Shown piece by piece: positions 29,783-43,629 of a DNA stretch of 64,000 nt. Below the pieces are notes generated by a model. It worked only from the letters and a program-made list of their open reading frames with translations. It searched no databases and had not been told where the DNA came from. This DNA comes from an uncultured Methanosarcinales archaeon. GTDB lineage: Archaea > Halobacteriota > Methanosarcinia > Methanotrichales > Methanotrichaceae. The stretch spans positions 64,001-128,000 of the forward strand of contig CAWJKV010000007.1 of NCBI GenBank assembly GCA_963843555.1, given 5' to 3'. The number at the start of each line of letters is the position of its first letter. The first letter of the stretch is position 1. Position numbers and translations under genes: made by a program.

Positions 29783-31183
29783 TCATGTCGGATCGCTTGG
29801 ATTTCTTTTTCTATGCCATCTTTCCAGGTAGCTCACTCCAAAAAGGAAGGTTCCAGAGACGGCCATTCCTAGCAATGGATAGCTCTGGCCGAAGATTATG
29901 GCTGTAGCGCCTCCTCCCACCAGCGCAGACAGCGCTCCGGAAGACGTGAGGCCGAGCCTCTCTTTATAAAACCCGGCAACTACAGGTAAGAGGAGGCCGC
30001 TGGTGAATACCGTGTAGGCAATGAGCAAGGTCTTGGTGATGCTCGGCATTGAGACCGCTAGGAGAAGGGCAGATGCACCAATGATTAATACCGCGATCCG
30101 CGAGACCTGAATCAAATGGTGCGAGCTGGCTTTGGGTCTTATTTTTTTGTATATATCAAGGGTAAGGATGGATGTGACGGTCATCAGGCTCGTGTCAGCC
30201 GAAGACATAAAAGCCGCCAAGAGTGCAGCTGCCACAATGCCCTCAATTCCCGGTGAGAGAAGCTCCGTCAAGAGCGATGGAATAGCCTGCTCAGGAGATA
30301 TTGTCGGATAAAGAGACCTGGAAAAGATGCCCAGCGATGTGATGAGAAATGCCAATGGGATGAGGACGATTGCCGAAATGAATACGGAAATCTTTGCCTC
30401 TCTCGGGCTGCGGGCAGAGAGCAGGCGCGAATACATGTCTGGACCGATCAGGTAGGCTGAGCCCACTACCAATAGCATGGAGATCGCTTCCCAGCCACCC
30501 ATCTTATCAGAAGTGGGAAAACTCTCGCTTAAGAGAAGCCCCGGCCCGGATGCATTAAGAGCCGCCTGGAATAGAAGAATCATTCCCATTATTATTATCA
30601 GGAACTGCACCAGATCGGTTCTAACGACTGAGCTTTGCCCACCGTGCGCTGTGTAAAGGACGAACACCGCCGTGCATATAACCATGAAGAGAGTTCCGTT
30701 TCCTCCGAAGACCGCGCTGAGGACTTTTCCAGAAGCTATGATCTGCACGGCGATCACACCAACCCAGGAGACGGCGATGAGAATTGAGGCTGCAGTCCTT
30801 GCTCTTTCACCATAAAACGATCCCACCAGTTGCGGCAGAGTATAACATCCCGTTGATCTAATTCTTCCGGCAAAAAAAACAAGAATAAGCATTCCAATAG
30901 TGCCGGAGAGCATCCACCAGGCACCGGGAAAGCCTTTGCTGAATCCCAGTCCCGCCATTCCGATGGTGGATGAGGCTCCTATTATTGTGGCACAAAAAGT
31001 GCCTATCAGGAAGATCATCCTAAGGCTTCTGCCCGCCAGGTGAAAATCCTCCAGGCTCCTCATACGAAGCCTCCACGCTCCTATGATGAGGATAGCCAGC
31101 AGATAGACCACAATTACAAAAGCCGATTGATTCGCAAACACCCCTTCTATTGTCGACCAAATGTCCCTGATTTTGGTTGACAA
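29783..31183 (-). CDS. Sodium:solute symporter family protein
   Basis: [36 protein letters not shown]; about 13 TM segments. Confidence 0.9.
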
Positions 31184-31270
31184 TAAATCAACGTAGGTTT
31201 AAACCTTTCGCTAAACTCCATCAACAGTGGCTGTCCAATGGTGTTCCTGGGATTTTCTACACAACTCCTA

Positions 31271-33095
31271 TGCGATCCTTGGAAAATGAGGAGCAATTAG
31301 AGGATAATAATGCTGCATCTAACAATCCGACAACATTGGAAGAGAAAAATCTGATAAAGGAGATCGAACGCAAGACTCCGGTGGTGGATCTGCCTCTGGG
31401 CGCCACTGAAGACCGTGTCGTGGGCTCTTTGAATGTTGAGAGAGCCATCAAGGAAGGCATCAAAGCCCTGGAACCGGGCATCCTGGCAGCCGCCAATCGA
31501 GGCATACTCTACATAGATGAGGTCAATCTTCTGGATGATCACGTGGCCGACGTCCTCCTGGACTCTGCAGCCATGGGGGTAAATATTGTGGAAAGGGAGG
31601 GCGTGTCAGTGGCCCATCCCTCCAAATTCATTTTAGTGGGAACCATGAACCCAGAGGAGGGAGAGATCCGGCCCCAGCTTCTGGACCGGTTCGGGCTGCA
31701 GGTCAGCGTTGTCGGCATTGAAGATGTGGACCAGAGAATGCAGATCGCCAAGATGGCGGAGAGCTTTGATCGTGATCCGGAAGTCTTCGCCATGCAGTGC
31801 CATGCCAGACAGGAGGAGCTGAAAGGGAAGATCGCTCAGGCCAGGAATAGGCTTCGGAAAGTGATCATGAGCGATGATCTTCTCAGATCCATCGCCTCTA
31901 CCTGCATCGACCTGGGCGTCAAGACGCACCGGGCTGAGATTGTCATCTCCAGGACCGCCAGGACCATTGCCGCTTTCGAGGGGAGAGCAGAGGTCAATTC
32001 TGAGGACGCAAAGATGGCCATGCAACTGGCCCTGGCCCACAGGATGAGAAGCAGGCCCTTTGAGCCGCCCACCTGAATAAAGAGAAGCTGGAAAAGTCCA
32101 TGGAAAAGCATCAACAAGAGCAGCAACACCCGCATCGGTCGCAGAAGAAAGAAGAGCCTCAGACTCACGAGCCCGATGATCAGCAGGATTCAAAGCAGAC
32201 CCAGGCGGCAAAAGCCGAGGAGCAGATCTTCAGTGTCGGATCGTCCATTGATGTGCGCCAGATAAATATGCCCCACAAGAGAGATAGGATTGCGCGCCGA
32301 AAAACCAGCGGCAGAAGAATGAATACCTTGGCCCTGAAGAAACGGGGTCGATATCTGCGCCAGAGGATGCCCATGGATGGCAAAGACATCGCCATCGATG
32401 CTACGATTCGAGCGGCAGCCCCTTATCAGAGGGTTCGATTCGGTCCCAATGCCATACGAGTGTTGAGCGAAGATATTAGAGAGAAGGAGAGGGTTGGCAA
32501 GACCTCGGCCGTGGTGCTCTTCGTGGTGGATGCCAGCGGCTCCATGGGGGCCATGCAGAGGATGGAGAGCGCCAAGGGAGCGGTTCTCTCCATGCTCATG
32601 GACTCCTACCAGAAGAGAGACAAAATCGGCATGGTGGCCTTCAAAGGCACGGAGGCGGAGCCAATTCTGTCGCCCTCTTCCAGCGTGGATCTGGCCCTGA
32701 GCCGATTGCGTGAGCTTCCCACAGGCGGCAAGACGCCGCTATGTGCCGGCCTCTCCCGGGGACTGCAGATTTTGCAGGGCGAGCTGCGCAAGGATGAGGA
32801 GACCAAGACCATGATGGTGCTCATATCCGATGGAAGGGCCAATGTGGGAATGGGAGGAAAGATCAAAGACGAGCTGATGGAGATCTCGGAACAGAGCAAA
32901 CGGCTCGGAGTGCACACCATCGTCATAGATACCGAAGTTGTGGAGAGCTCCTTCATGGACATCAGGCTCGGCTACTGTCGGGAGATCGCAGAAACTGCAG
33001 GCGGAAAATACTATCCTCTATCCGGCTTGAGTCCGGAAGCTCTTTACGGCATTGTAGATGGTGAGCAAAAGCTGATCTTTGAGAGCAATACATAG
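31271..33095 (+). CDS. ChlI/ChlD-type chelatase subunit (AAA+ plus VWA), N-terminally truncated, frame break at about 32073
   Basis: [62 protein letters not shown]; no Walker A region. Confidence 0.8.
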
Positions 33096-36503: not shown

Positions 36504-37565
36504 ATGCGAGGAATACAATGGTTGCTGCTTTTTTTGCCGGTCGCAATTCTGATGGAATTGGCCCACACTGGCGGGGCGCTGGTCTTTGCAGCCTCGGCAC
36601 TAGCTATCATTCCCCTGGCTGGAACTCTGGGAGAGGCCACTGAAGCACTGGCTCTGAAAACAGGTCCGCGCATCGGAGGTCTCCTGAACGCAACCTTTGG
36701 CAATGCAGCGGAATTGATTATCACCCTGGTGGCGCTCCAGGCAGGCCAGATGGAGTTGGTCAGGGCCTCTATCACCGGCTCAATTTTAGGTAATTTGCTT
36801 CTGGTCCTGGGATTGGCCATGCTCGTAGGAGGTCTCAAGAACGGTCTGCAGAAATTCGATCGCCGCCATGTAGACACGGATGCCACCATGACCATCCTGG
36901 CGTTGATCGCCATGAGTGTGCCCTCGCTCTTCAGTCATTACATAGAACCGGACAAGCTGCGAGTCGTGGAGCTGAGCCTGACTACAGCGGGAACGATACT
37001 GATCCTATATATCCTCTTCATCATATACACTCTGAAGAGTTGCAGTTCAGAAAAATGCGATGCCGTAACGGTAAGAGAGGCCCTTCCCACACACCGCTGG
37101 AGTATGCGCAAGGCTTTAGCAATGATGACCTTCTCCATGGCCGGAATCGTCCTGATGAGCGAGTTCCTGGTGGGGTCGGTAGAGGCTGCCACCACGGTCC
37201 TTGGCTTGACGCCTTTCTTCGTAGGAATAATAATCGTCCCCATTATCGGCAATGTTGCTGAGCATCTCGTCGCAGTACAGGCTGCTCGGCAGGATAAAAT
37301 GGATCTGTCCCTTTCTATCACCCTGGGGTCCAGCCTGCAGATCGCGCTCTTTGTTACACCAGTGCTGGTCTTCGTCTCTTTCATTATGGGAGATCCACTC
37401 ACACTGGAGTTCAATCAGTTGGAGCTAATTGCCCTGGCCGCTGCAACGTTCATCTCGGCCCTGGTTGCCCTGGATGGAGAATCTAACTGGCTGGAAGGAG
37501 CAATGCTGCTGGCGGTTTATGGCATCCTGGGCCTGGCATTCTTCTTCCTGCCGGCAGGGGTGTAG
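36504..37565 (+). CDS. cax: Calcium/proton exchanger
   Basis: NATFGNAAEL, GSILGNLLL, GNVAEH, GSSLQIALF, DGESNWLEG. Confidence 0.93.
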   Translation: MRGIQWLLLFLPVAILMELAHTGGALVFAASALAIIPLAGTLGEATEALALKTGPRIGGLLNATFGNAAELIITLVALQAGQMELVRASITGSILGNLLLVLGLAMLVGGLKNGLQKFDRRHVDTDATMTILALIAMSVPSLFSHYIEPDKLRVVELSLTTAGTILILYILFIIYTLKSCSSEKCDAVTVREALPTHRWSMRKALAMMTFSMAGIVLMSEFLVGSVEAATTVLGLTPFFVGIIIVPIIGNVAEHLVAVQAARQDKMDLSLSITLGSSLQIALFVTPVLVFVSFIMGDPLTLEFNQLELIALAAATFISALVALDGESNWLEGAMLLAVYGILGLAFFFLPAGV

Positions 37566-37722
37566 GCTGAAATGTGAGGTGCATTGATTGGATGATTCCG
37601 ACCAAATCAATATGTTGTTCTCTATCGAGGGTCCGGTGCTCCCATATCGATAATTTCTGTGTGATATGCAGGAACGGATTTCATAGAGGATTATGAAAAA
37701 CGAAAATAGCAATTTTTATTGG

Positions 37723-37736
37723 CAAAAGTTTTATAG
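37723..37736 (+). promoter_or_regulatory. Putative leuA promoter (BRE/TATA)
   Basis: CAAAAGTTTTATAG ending about 24 nt upstream of ATG 37760, implying a nearly leaderless mRNA. Confidence 0.6.
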
Positions 37737-37759
37737 GGCGGATATGTTAATCATGATTT

Positions 37760-39323
37760 ATGACACACGAAACCTCTGTGGGGAATCGCCTTCTACGACG
37801 TTCGTTCGCTTGTTGATGAAAGAGTTCGCATTTTTGACACCACCCTTCGCGATGGAGAGCAGACTCCCGGGGTATCTCTCACTCAGGAAGAGAAGCTCAA
37901 GATCGCCTGGCAGCTTGATAAACTCGGTGTGAATGTCATCGAAGCCGGGTTTCCCGTCTCCTCGAAGGGGGAGTTTGACAGCGTCCGCCAGATTGCCAGA
38001 GCAGGCCTGAATGCCCAGGTCTGCGGTCTCTCCCGTATCGTCAAGAAAGATGCCCAGGCCTGTATCGATGCTGATGTGGGTATGGTGCATGTCTTTGTTC
38101 CTACCTCGGATATCCAGATCGCTCATACTATTAAAAAGAGCCATGATGAGATCGTAGAAGGGGCCAGGGAAACAGTGCAGTTTGTGAAGGACCAGGGAAG
38201 GACCTGCCTCTTCTCGGCAATGGATGCCACCCGCACCTCTCCCGAGTTCTTGCACCGCATCTTCAAGGCGGTAGAAGAGGTGCATTGCGATGTTATCAAC
38301 ATCCCTGACACCGTGGGAGTGGCGAATCCATCCAGTTTCTATCGATTTGTCAAGGACATCTGTGATGATGTGGATATGGTGGTCGACGTCCACTGCCATA
38401 ACGACTTCGGCCTGGCTGTGGCCAACAGCCTGGCAGCCGTCGAAGCCGGAGCAAGAGAAGTCCAGGTCTGCGTTAACGGCCTGGGTGAAAGGGCCGGCAA
38501 CGCCAACCTGGCCGAGACGGTGATGAGCCTGCACTCCATCTACAGAGCCCGAACCGACATAAAGACGGAATATCTGGTGGAGACGGCCCGGCTCGTGGAG
38601 CGGCTGACCAAGGTGAATATATCTATAACGGCTCCCATTGTGGGGGAGAACGCCTTCTCCCACGAGTCCGGCATTCACAGCCATGGAGTGATCGAGAACA
38701 GCAAGACCTTTGAGCCCGGCATCATGACTCCTGAGATGGTGGGCCACAAGAGGCGCATAGTTCTCGGCAAACATACCGGAAGGCACGCTGTGGCCAAAGT
38801 TCTGGAGGAAGCAGGCTACCGGCCCACAGAAGATCAGCTTCAGGAGATCCTGGAGAGGGTTAAAGAGCTGGGTGATAAAGGAAAGCAGATCGGCAATATA
38901 GATCTTCAAACCATTGCCGATGTTGTGATTGGAGAGGTGGCTAAGGGCAGCCAGGCAGTGGTGCTGAAAGAGGTCTCAGTCATGACCGGGAACATCATCA
39001 CGCCCACGGCAACCGTGAAGGCCCTGGTGCGGGGTAAGGAGAAGGTCCTGGCCAGTATCGGCGTGGGACCGGTAGACGCGGCCGTAAACGCTGTGCAGGG
39101 TATCCTGGAGAGCGAGACATCCATTCACCTCTGCGATTTTCGGATAGAAGCCATAACTGGTGGTGCAGATGCACTGGCGGAAGTGGTTATTGGAGTTGAG
39201 GATGACCGGGGCCGCAAGGTCAGCGCCCGCTCGGCGCGCGAGGATATCGTCATGGCCTCAGTTGAGGCCCTGGTCAGCGCCATAAATAGATTGATGCTTC
39301 TGGAGGAACCTCTTGTTGAATGA
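37760..39323 (+). CDS. leuA: 2-isopropylmalate synthase; the conserved N-terminus has no in-frame canonical start
   Basis: [15 protein letters not shown] (37824 onward, upstream of the ORF-track GTG), [28 protein letters not shown]-terminal regulatory domain GVGPVDA; citramalate synthase not fully excluded. Confidence 0.85.
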
Positions 39324-40086
39324 ATCAGTGCCTGGGATAATCGATTCACATTGTCACCTCGATTTCAAGCAGTTTAACAAAGATCGCGAAGCTGTGATGG
39401 AGAACGCCCGAAAGTGCGGCGTGGTCCGGATGATCAACTCGGGCGTGGACTATTCCACCAATCAAAAGTCACTGGATCTGGCGAAGAAATATGATTTCAT
39501 CTTCGCCACCCTCGGTCTCAGTCCCAACACCATAGAAGGCCAAAAAGATCCTGAACTGAAGCTGCGATTGGCGCAGATAGAGGAGAATGCGGGACAGGCG
39601 CTGGGAATCGGCGAGGCAGGACTTGATTATTACCACTGCAAAGACGCCAGCTCGAGAGAGCGGCAGGCAGAGGTTTTCAGAAAGGTCATAGACCTGGCTA
39701 AATCTCTGAATTTGCCGCTGGTTATTCATTCCCGGGATGCGGAACAGCCTGCCCTGGAGATGGTCAAACACCTGGATAAGGTCGTGTTTCACTGCTACAG
39801 CGGAACTCTCGCCACCATGAAAGAGGCCATTGACAGAGGATTCTACATCTCTCTGGCCACAAGCATCTGCCGCTCCGGACACCACCAGATTCTGGCGAGG
39901 AATGTATCAATGGACTATCTTCTGGTGGAGACCGACAGCCCATTCCTAAGCCCACGCAGTGGCAGAAATGAGCCCTCATTTATCCAGGATTCCGTCCGAC
40001 TCATCGCCAAGATCAGAGGCATGGAGCCGCAAGAGGTTGCAGAGAAAACAGCGGAGAATACCAAACGAATTTATAACATCCGTTGA
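39313..40086 (+). CDS. tatD: TatD family hydrolase
   Basis: DSHCHLD, IGEAGLDY, VIHSR, FHCYSG, VETDSPFL. Confidence 0.92.
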   Translation: MLNESVPGIIDSHCHLDFKQFNKDREAVMENARKCGVVRMINSGVDYSTNQKSLDLAKKYDFIFATLGLSPNTIEGQKDPELKLRLAQIEENAGQALGIGEAGLDYYHCKDASSRERQAEVFRKVIDLAKSLNLPLVIHSRDAEQPALEMVKHLDKVVFHCYSGTLATMKEAIDRGFYISLATSICRSGHHQILARNVSMDYLLVETDSPFLSPRSGRNEPSFIQDSVRLIAKIRGMEPQEVAEKTAENTKRIYNIR

Positions 40087-42023: not shown

Positions 42024-43629
42024 TTGAAGTCAATAGTCAAGGGATCGGTCGGCACAATTGTTGGCGAGACCAATCCATTAGCATTCAAGTTTCTCATAAA
42101 TAAAGAGGTTGGAAGGGGCACTTACGTCAAGGCCAAGGCCGAAGGAAAGGAGTGGATCCTGGCCCAGGTTGATGACATAAAGAGGTCAAACTCCGCCTAC
42201 AGCGTAAACCAGCTCAATGATGCAGCCAGAAATTACGATTCAAGAGAGATGATGATCGCCGAGACAAGGGTGATCGGCGTGGGAAGCAACGGCAAGCTAC
42301 ATCTTCCCACCAGTCCTGCCCGGCCGGGAGAACCGGTGTTCATTGCCGATGAAAAGCTGATCAAGGCAACTCTGGGCCTGGCCAAAGGCGATATGTACGT
42401 GGGTATGCTGCGGGGTTACGATATCCGGGTGGAGCTGGACGCCAATACGCTGGTGCAGAAGCACTGCAGCGTGTCTAGCCAAAACAGGTTCAGGAAAATC
42501 CTATACAGCTGCAGTGATCCTGGAAGAGCTGTTGGAAAGAAAAGTGGCTCTGCTCGTCATCGATCCTCACGGCGAATATGCCTCTATGAAGGAGCCCAAT
42601 AAGGTGGGCGACTTCAGCAGGTATAAGATCAAGCCGCGAGGCTACGATGTAACTGTATACACCCCGGGCGAGATGGCCATGAATCAGAGAGCTGACCGGC
42701 CTTTTCGCTTCAATGGCCTGAACCTGTCTGCTCGAGAGGTGGCGAAAATGATTCCTCACGAGGGCAGCAGCAGCGGTCAGTTGGGGCTGCTCTATGAGGC
42801 CATCAGCGCCCTGCGAGCGGAAACGGACGCCTACACCCTGGAGGACATAATTGAGCAGGTTGTGCGCAGCAACTCCAAGGTGAAATGGAATTTGGTGGGC
42901 CAGCTGGAATCGCTCCTGGAGCTGGGGCTCTTCTCCGGCTCGGCGACGCCCTGCGAAGAGATGCTCCGGCCAGGAAAAGCTGCAGTCATCGATATGACCG
43001 GCATCATCCCTGAGCTGCAGGCCATGATCGTCTCCCGGCTCCTGACCGATATCTTTGAGGCCCGAAAGCGCAGGCTGATCTCGCCAGGGATGGTGGTGGT
43101 AGAGGAGGCGCATAACTATATCCCGGAGCGGGGCACGGGGAACGCCGCTTCCACCAATATCGTGCGGACCATTGCTGCCGAAGGCAGAAAGTTCGGCCTG
43201 GGTCTGATGATCATCAGCCAGAGGCCGGCCCGCGTGGACAAGAACGTCATCTCCCAGTGCAACACCCAGATCATCATGAGGGTCACAAACCCCAACGATC
43301 TCAAGGCGCTGAGCAAAGGCCTGGAAGGTATGACCTCCGACCTAGAAGAAGAGATCAAACGGCTGCCGGCAGGCGTGGCCATGCTGGTAAGCAATGAGAT
43401 CGAGCGGCCTATTACGGTCAATGTCCGGCCCAGAAAATCCCGGCATGGAGGCATAAGCACTGAGATTGTCTCCAAAGAGAAGGCCAATGCCTCCATCACC
43501 CATGCGACAAGGGGGCCGGAGAAGAGGCCCGATGCTCCAGCAGGCTCAGCGACGGAAAGGCCCAGCCGGGAGAAAAAGGGGCCAGGCGGCGGATTGCTGA
43601 AGAAGGTCTTTGGGACGAGAAAGGCATAA
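42024..43629 (+). CDS. HerA-like ATPase (HAS barrel plus DUF87), frame break at about 42474
   Basis: KHCSV/LAKTGSGKS Walker A across the break; IDPHGEY, VEEAHNY, EGRKFG, ISQRP. Confidence 0.88.

Follow-up and report, generated by a model that had tools for sequence, protein, structure and literature searches.

A leader reading frame precedes leuA out of frame

The DNA analysed here (the window) is a stretch of 64,000 nucleotides from an uncultured Methanosarcinales archaeon, positions 64,001 to 128,000 of contig CAWJKV010000007.1 (assembly GCA_963843555.1), and the element under study is the 5' end of its leuA gene, predicted to encode 2-isopropylmalate synthase. The leuA frame is closed by a TGA at 37761 and holds no ATG, GTG or TTG ahead of the DTTLRDGEQ motif, whose Asp codon lies at 37836-37838; the earliest canonical in-frame start is a GTG at 37929, 31 codons beyond that Asp. 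An ATG at 37760 opens an upstream open reading frame (uORF, hereafter the leader) of 18 codons, in which the only Leu codons are CTT at 37790-37792 and CTA at 37793-37795. The initial annotation of the locus had reported the closed frame, the missing start and the uORF, and all were confirmed together with their coordinates. The features are as follows.

37721..37736, forward strand: archaeal promoter-like element, with purine-rich GGCAAAAG resembling a B recognition element (BRE) at 37721-37728 and TATA-like TTTTATAG at 37729-37736
37760..37816, forward strand: leader (uORF), 18 codons, in the -1 frame relative to leuA; ATG at 37760, TGA at 37814-37816
37761..37763, forward strand: TGA closing the leuA (+1) frame, read from the sequence
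37776..37778, forward strand: in-frame CTG, candidate non-AUG start, read from the sequence
37778..37788, forward strand: Shine-Dalgarno (SD)-like GTGGGGAATCG directly 5' of the slip codon, a possible stimulator, from pairing with the 16S 3' end
37790..37793, forward strand: proposed slip site, where P-site CUU would re-pair with UUC (37791-37793), from the sequence
37793..37795, forward strand: proposed sensor (A-site) Leu codon CTA, from the conservation of Leu
37794..39323, forward strand: body of LeuA (2-isopropylmalate synthase), +1 frame; predicted trans-frame product of 520 aa
37836..37862, forward strand: DTTLRDGEQ active-site motif, which aligns with isopropylmalate synthases of solved structure, beginning at query residue 10

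We take GGCAAAAG and TTTTATAG to be BRE and TATA elements by their likeness to the consensus, and the R-D pair of the DTTLRDGEQ motif is presumably catalytic. A GGGG run lies inside the leader at 37780-37783, and an in-frame ATC at 37785-37787, within GTGGGGAATCG, is a second candidate non-AUG start.

The gene was identified as a predicted 2-isopropylmalate synthase by family score (695.8 bits against NCBIfam NF002085, cut-off 517), by its domains (Pfam HMGL-like, HCS_D2 and LeuA_dimer) and by clade. Because NF002085 scores a paralog near the cut-off as well, the division between LeuA and paralog rests on trees, in which the body groups in the LeuA clade, apart from a citramalate synthase-like clade with Ile leaders. 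The first tree comprised 95 columns and 82 loci, with short bodies, locus L072 and surplus rows per family omitted, and the second was a quick tree of 33 rows; both were used solely to separate the paralog clades. The leuA-type genes of the window genome (G000, 82% complete) are leuA itself and a shorter third paralog; within this 82%, a leuA query found no citramalate-synthase paralog, a loose pattern (leader ATG, NTT, no early Met) applied to 3783 open frames returned no gene beyond leuA, and tRNA-Leu(UAG) and tRNA-Leu(CAG) were not among the 38 tRNAs.

The displaced frame is conserved among relatives

The initial annotation had considered a spurious G in the GGGG run at 37780-37783 as the source of the displaced frame, and the assembly does carry private one-base breaks in two other genes. 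A Mg-chelatase-like gene with AAA and VWA domains (31177-33095) is broken near 32073, where one base is missing, and is unbroken in 7/7 loci of 5 relatives; a HAS-barrel and HerA gene (42024-43629) is broken near 42473, where there is one extra base, and is unbroken in 5/5 relatives. Each of these breaks is a probable assembly error, judged by comparison with the intact relatives, and both are private to the assembly, unlike that of leuA: GTGGGGAAT stands ahead of the slip codon in 39/39 same-genus loci, single- and two-contig genomes included, and the out-of-frame ATG, the GGGG run and CTT-CTA are all kept in the same 39. The leader motif was present in the 5' regions of 69/69 other family genomes (104 family genomes searched), and 9-nt insertions in the loci of three relatives preserve the leader frame. 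In Logan contigs (contigs, not raw reads) of two DNA runs, which cover 37759-37916 and 37749-38026, there is no indel; a further run, X16, covers 4/29 bins and is uninformative. Since the arrangement is conserved across relatives and the independent contigs are free of indels, while the body is intact and conserved, an assembly error was rejected, and a surplus G or a pseudogene is now extremely improbable.

One relative, L072 (genome G082), has two extra bases that bring the leader ATG into the frame of the body but garble the active-site motif; this variant looks like an assembly or polishing artefact.

The leader is widespread in Halobacteriota

The survey comprised 208 leuA loci of Halobacteriota, one per genome and the window included, from a hand-picked subset of genomes. 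The motif pattern was composed after the loci had been viewed; NTT was part of its definition and the A-site codon was unused, and for L139 and L188 the site was assigned manually. The leader motif was found in 166 of the 208 loci, being represented in 19 coded families and in 30/30 halophile-type loci of seven further families, and was absent from 42. Every one of the 42 motif-less loci has an in-frame ATG (38) or GTG/TTG (4), 4-25 codons from the Asp; a canonical in-frame start is absent from 105/166 leader-bearing loci.

The initial annotation had proposed that relatives be examined for conservation of an out-of-frame ATG with a slip site, and an open ATG in the uORF frame lies within 30 codons in 165/166 leader-bearing loci; the nearest upstream ATG is in the leader frame in 140/166. 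The leader varies from 4 to 20 codons in length with its frame maintained, and its stop falls 0-10 codons past the Leu codon in all 166. Among 63 distinct family sequences, the leader region carries a stop in the leuA frame in 49, versus none in the uORF frame.

A pattern scan of the genome collection, in which the pattern set NTT-YT and neither the frame nor the third base, returned at least 119 loci, partly overlapping the set of 166. Among the matches listed, 119/119 were in register, 119/119 had Leu and 0 had Phe, and 118 had an open leader ATG; they included Methanothrix, Methanolobus, Methanococcoides, Methanoregula, Methanoperedens, Halorutilales and Hodarchaeota. Two contigs from metagenome-assembled genomes labelled as bacterial (L354 and L362) carry Methanothrix-type leuA leaders; over 150 bases they match the window at 0.81 and 0.88 identity, and they are probably mis-binned.

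The leader frame is under selection for a Leu codon

The codon proposed to occupy the P site was CTT in 74 loci, TTT in 58, GTT in 32 and ATT in 2, so that CTT or TTT accounts for 132/166 and GTT or ATT for 34. The A-site codon that follows encodes Leu in 166/166 leuA leaders, with all six codons used (CTA 75, CTT 54, TTA 31, CTC 3, TTG 2, CTG 1). The tandem CTT-CTA to which the initial annotation drew attention is present in Methanothrix-type loci; what is invariant is the second, A-site Leu, the first codon being any of the four above.

In the leuA frame, the residue overlapping the A-site codon is Y in 106 loci, F in 53, S in 3, W in 2, C in 1 and L in 1, and because a Phe-Tyr pair in this frame would force Leu in the leader frame, the confound was tested. 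When the A-site codon ends in T or C, in which case Leu requires a first base C, the first base was C in 57 loci and T in 0; when it ends in A or G, and either first base gives Leu, C was found in 76 and T in 33. At the 25 non-halophile loci (7 families) whose third bases are TT, TTC served as the first Phe codon in 25/25; the next codon at the same loci was TTC in 14, TTT in 10 and TTA in 1, and body Phe codons were TTC in 192/281. The codon ahead of the slip site was CGT, CGC, CGA or CGG in 138/166, a choice that leaves the leader residue unchanged, whereas the leuA residue becomes V, A, D, E or G. Past the junction, a synonymy test on the 63 distinct family sequences gave a clear signal, 72/187 for the leuA frame vs 40/191. 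The comparisons at the A-site codon show that the leader frame is under selection for a Leu codon.

Re-pairing of the P-site codon in the +1 frame preserves the middle base in all 166 loci. A -2 slip was considered and rejected, as at most one base of the P-site codon would be kept in 126/166.

A twin leader with Ile precedes the citramalate synthase paralog

The sister citramalate-synthase (cimA) clade carries the leader motif in 61/79 loci, with Ile at the sensor position in 60 and Leu in 1, and its junction codon is TTA in 60/61 vs 6% of body Leu codons. Five paralog loci have an in-frame start. As the paralog leader carries Ile and the leuA leader carries Leu, the sensor codon tracks the end product of the pathway.

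The leader of one paralog locus, L228, matches HVO_0644A of Haloferax volcanii from the second Met of the L228 leader; HVO_0644A, upstream of HVO_0644, is a leaderless small open reading frame in ribosome profiling (PMC10117724 supplement; here and below, statements on published work refer to the parts of each source that were consulted), and disruption of HVO_0644 results in Ile auxotrophy (PMC4300041). In 13/19 halophile paralogs (L225-L243), additional to the 61 motif loci, the leader is of another type, whose conserved peptide is longer and ends in GAA-ATT; HVO_0644A belongs to this type.

Related leaders occur in Asgard archaea

Matches were found in 24/101 Asgard genomes, and 31 loci were read by eye: 13 had leaders with Leu, 6 with Ile and 3 with Arg, and 9 had none. 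On the tree the Ile leaders cluster with the paralog clade, and for five the support is 99. In a record labelled as Hodarchaeota (L344/L423), the junction motif is kept and an in-frame ATG stands behind an SD-like stretch; a close homolog, L428, is without that ATG and has a leader-frame TTG. With these loci included, we find it fairly probable that the leaders form an ancient group of archaeal amino-acid sensors, shared by Halobacteriota and Asgard, where ribosomes would get to a pathway's committed enzyme only through a +1 slip on an end-product codon (Leu for LeuA, Ile for CimA).

A frameshift model for LeuA synthesis

In 65/78 family pairs the uORF-frame ATG stands 28-31 nt from TTTATA, and in the window 30 nt, a spacing that fits a leaderless or near-leaderless mRNA. 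The ATG at 37760 is the probable start of LeuA translation. Two other ATGs, both in the third frame, were rejected as starts: that at 37753 lies upstream of where the transcript is expected to begin, and that at 37816, which would permit a restart at the TGATG of the leader stop, is not conserved in other genera.

The 16S 3' end was located in the window at 2738 (2738-2749), and its predicted duplex with the GTGGGGAATCG region has an energy of -6.7 kcal/mol. Over the 166 loci, the 15 nt ahead of the slip site paired with the 16S 3' end at a mean of -8.1 kcal/mol vs -4.8 kcal/mol for coding controls; the complementarity exceeded coding controls in 95% of the loci, and the predicted duplex ended 1 nt ahead of the P-site codon in 136/166.

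We propose that initiation takes place at the out-of-frame ATG 37760, the mRNA being probably leaderless, and that ribosomes then translate the leader until CUU occupies the P site and CUA the A site. With ample charged tRNA-Leu, CUA would be decoded and translation would end at the leader stop, yielding no enzyme. When leucyl-tRNA is short, the A site would stand empty and the peptidyl-tRNA could slip by one base, from CUU to UUC, possibly aided by the SD-like pairing just upstream; decoding would then resume at UAC 37794 in the leuA frame, producing full-length LeuA of 520 aa. The frameshift would thus be sensor and switch in one. We give this reading, in which LeuA synthesis depends on a ribosomal +1 frameshift under the control of charged tRNA-Leu, a probability of roughly 0.7 on the comparative evidence; a leucine-sensing +1 frameshift had been put forward in the initial annotation, and the conserved leader, the invariant A-site Leu and the Ile twin support it. 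The model also predicts that peptide 43-61 of HVO_1510, the haloarchaeal leuA2, would be missing: this annotated peptide, which lies across the predicted junction, was unseen in proteomes (PMC8305020 supplement), an absence that constitutes weak evidence.

Several observations count against the model. Slips on GTT and ATT, and from TTT to TTA, require a mismatch on re-pairing. Ahead of the junction, synonymy among the 63 distinct family sequences was weak (23/68 vs 15/74, p 0.09, a value that overstates significance, as do p-values here generally, since kin loci are not independent). Of the leader-bearing loci, 61/166 have an in-frame ATG (29) or GTG/TTG (32) 4-25 codons before the Asp, and Methanosarcina mazei MM_1284 is annotated from an in-frame ATG (PMC11456600 supplement). 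SD-like pairing is weak or missing in four loci (f5, L165-type), and the spacing is unlike the 3 nt of prfB. Among the paralogs, L249 has Leu where others have Ile, an in-frame ATG follows the leader ATG by 4 nt in Methanotrichaceae-type cimA (nine family loci, among L274-L303), and some f2 cimA loci lack the leader ATG; in f2 the position holds ATG, GTG or CTG, with tandem Ile codons after it. In Asgard, L426, L430 and L435 (G400, G475 and G469) carry Arg as GTT-CGT, their close homologs L427 and L429 having Leu, and TTC precedes Leu in three loci. To these are added an in-frame ATC or ATT two codons ahead of the junction in 132/166 loci, the presence of some near-cognate in-frame codon at every locus, and the assignment of an ATC start to MM_0671 (PMC11456600 supplement).

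These last three points favour an explanation without any frameshift, in which LeuA starts at a non-AUG codon of its own frame (CTG 37776 or ATC 37785) and the leader acts as a leucine-sensitive competitor, or as a queue that exposes the weak start. The CTG, which the initial annotation had offered as an alternative start, is indeed open and in frame in 38/40 same-genus loci, and an in-frame CTG has been proposed as a candidate by Pfeiffer and Dyall-Smith (PMC8305020); near-cognate codons account for about 30% of the putative alternative starts of H. volcanii (PMC7261190), and the f2 cimA loci in which GTG or CTG replaces the leader ATG point the same way. The CTG is not general, however: it is open in 59/166 loci, of which 15 are among 30 from other genera of the family and 6 among 96 outside it, and no other in-frame codon is universal. 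A TGA lies four codons ahead of the junction in 26 loci, and the ATC position is GTC, ACT, AAC, GTT, GTA or AGT in 32. Furthermore, a ribosome stalled at the Leu codon would presumably cover both candidate starts, and the in-register TT at the slip position (119/119 among the scan matches listed) is left without a reason. We therefore regard a non-AUG start as unlikely.

A second alternative keeps both the site and the +1 frameshift, which would proceed at a fixed rate, or in response to another signal, and so limit LeuA without leucine being sensed. CTA and TTA make up 4.8% and 4.2% of Leu codons in G000 (for CTA, in long open reading frames), reminiscent of the Ty1-type shifts on a slow codon (PMC5009743), and Arg exceptions are present in Asgard. 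The sensor is CTT in 54/166 loci. The codon used tracks what the pathway makes, Leu or Ile, and includes the common CTT and CTC, whereas a fixed-rate shift has no need of this. This possibility appears improbable.

Loss of one base from part of the mRNA, by transcriptional slippage or RNA editing, would also join the two frames. Runs of T5-T7 occur at the site in Methanosarcinaceae-type loci, but there is no homopolymer at the window site (CTTCTA) or at halophile sites (GTTCTT), and the exchange of Leu for Ile would be unaccounted for; one RNA contig (X15, 37792-38200) is without an indel, although it begins inside the site. We consider this explanation very unlikely.

Relation of the leader to known systems

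In bacterial attenuators (leu, ilv, trp), a short leader containing codons for the end product reads the level of charged tRNA. The leuA leader resembles these leader peptides in its end-product codons, Leu on leuA and Ile on the paralog; it differs in that it overlaps the gene out of frame, that one codon would be enough, that the gene lacks its own start, and that neither a terminator nor a stable fold was found. Specifically, a bacterial-type scan revealed no terminator-like site in 37500-37950, and folding of the single sequence over 37757-37870 gave no stable RNA structure (z = +1.63).

With prfB (CUU_UGA_C, PMC5009743) the leader shares a short zero-frame reading frame, a protein encoded in the +1 frame and a P-site CUU (UUU being a minority); under the proposed model it would also share a slow A site and a shift that is both sensor and effector, and its SD-like stretch may correspond to the internal SD sequence upstream in prfB. 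It is unlike prfB in that the A site holds a sense codon for the end product rather than a stop, the signal would be charged tRNA rather than release factor, the host is archaeal, the spacing of the SD-like sequence differs, and GTT and ATT occur. The leader would therefore work as prfB does without belonging to the same group, because its A site is a Leu sense codon (166/166). The yeast shifts of Ty1, ABP140 and EST3 (CUU_AGG_C), and hungry-codon shifting, involve a +1 slip of the P-site tRNA at a slow sense codon, as proposed for the leader, although Ty1 depends on a rare tRNA and not on a pathway product (PMC5009743). Ornithine decarboxylase antizyme offers another metabolite-responsive +1 shift that controls a metabolic pathway, but it is eukaryotic, responds to polyamines, shifts at the last codon of its first reading frame, and yields a product that inhibits synthesis (PMC5009743). 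As of 2016, no functional trans-frame protein specific to starvation was known (Atkins 2016, PMC5009743).

In archaea, fucA1 of Saccharolobus solfataricus also has a programmed frameshift in a chromosomal gene, but in the -1 direction, at a heptamer site and in a strain-restricted manner (PMC8211752); a 2021 review names it the sole reported archaeal case (PMC8211752). The initial annotation regarded a leucine-dependent switch of this kind as not known to be described in archaea; for haloarchaeal leuA2 (HVO_1510), an ortholog of the same set and an open annotation issue, slippage with leucine-dependent translation had already been speculated on in 2021 (Pfeiffer and Dyall-Smith 2021, PMC8305020). 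That account concerns haloarchaea only and, in the parts consulted, contains no slip site, sensor codon, methanogen or Asgard data, Ile twin or test. A literature search that covered few subscription papers retrieved no publication naming or testing the leuA slip site. HVO_1510 was without a match in PMC7261190 (main text and one supplement file) and in part of the PMC10117724 supplement, the leader peptide was without a match in the parts of the PMC11456600 supplement searched, and the consulted parts of PMC7002104 and PMC13759103 held nothing on the leuA leader. Regulatory +1 frameshifting in this form would be new, and was partly anticipated by the 2021 speculation.

If the model is correct, amino-acid shortage would turn LeuA on, and the leader would provide a regulatory +1 case in an archaeal chromosomal gene together with the missing example of a useful starvation-induced slip product. 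It would amount to natural, productive hungry-codon frameshifting, an archaeal counterpart of bacterial attenuation, and would offer methanogens and haloarchaea a route for sensing leucine and isoleucine at translation. Many annotated starts of leuA and cimA would then also be incorrect; the HVO_1510 annotation problem becomes testable, with a named site, codon and peptide, in the tractable Haloferax and Methanosarcina.

Neighbouring genes

Upstream of the leader lies a calcium/proton exchanger gene (36504-37565), and downstream a TatD-family nuclease gene (39313-40086), whose reading frame overlaps the end of leuA; no connection of either to the leader was seen. Elsewhere in the window, the 3' end of the 16S rRNA is followed by tRNA-Ala(TGC) at 2921-2993, as part of an rRNA operon.
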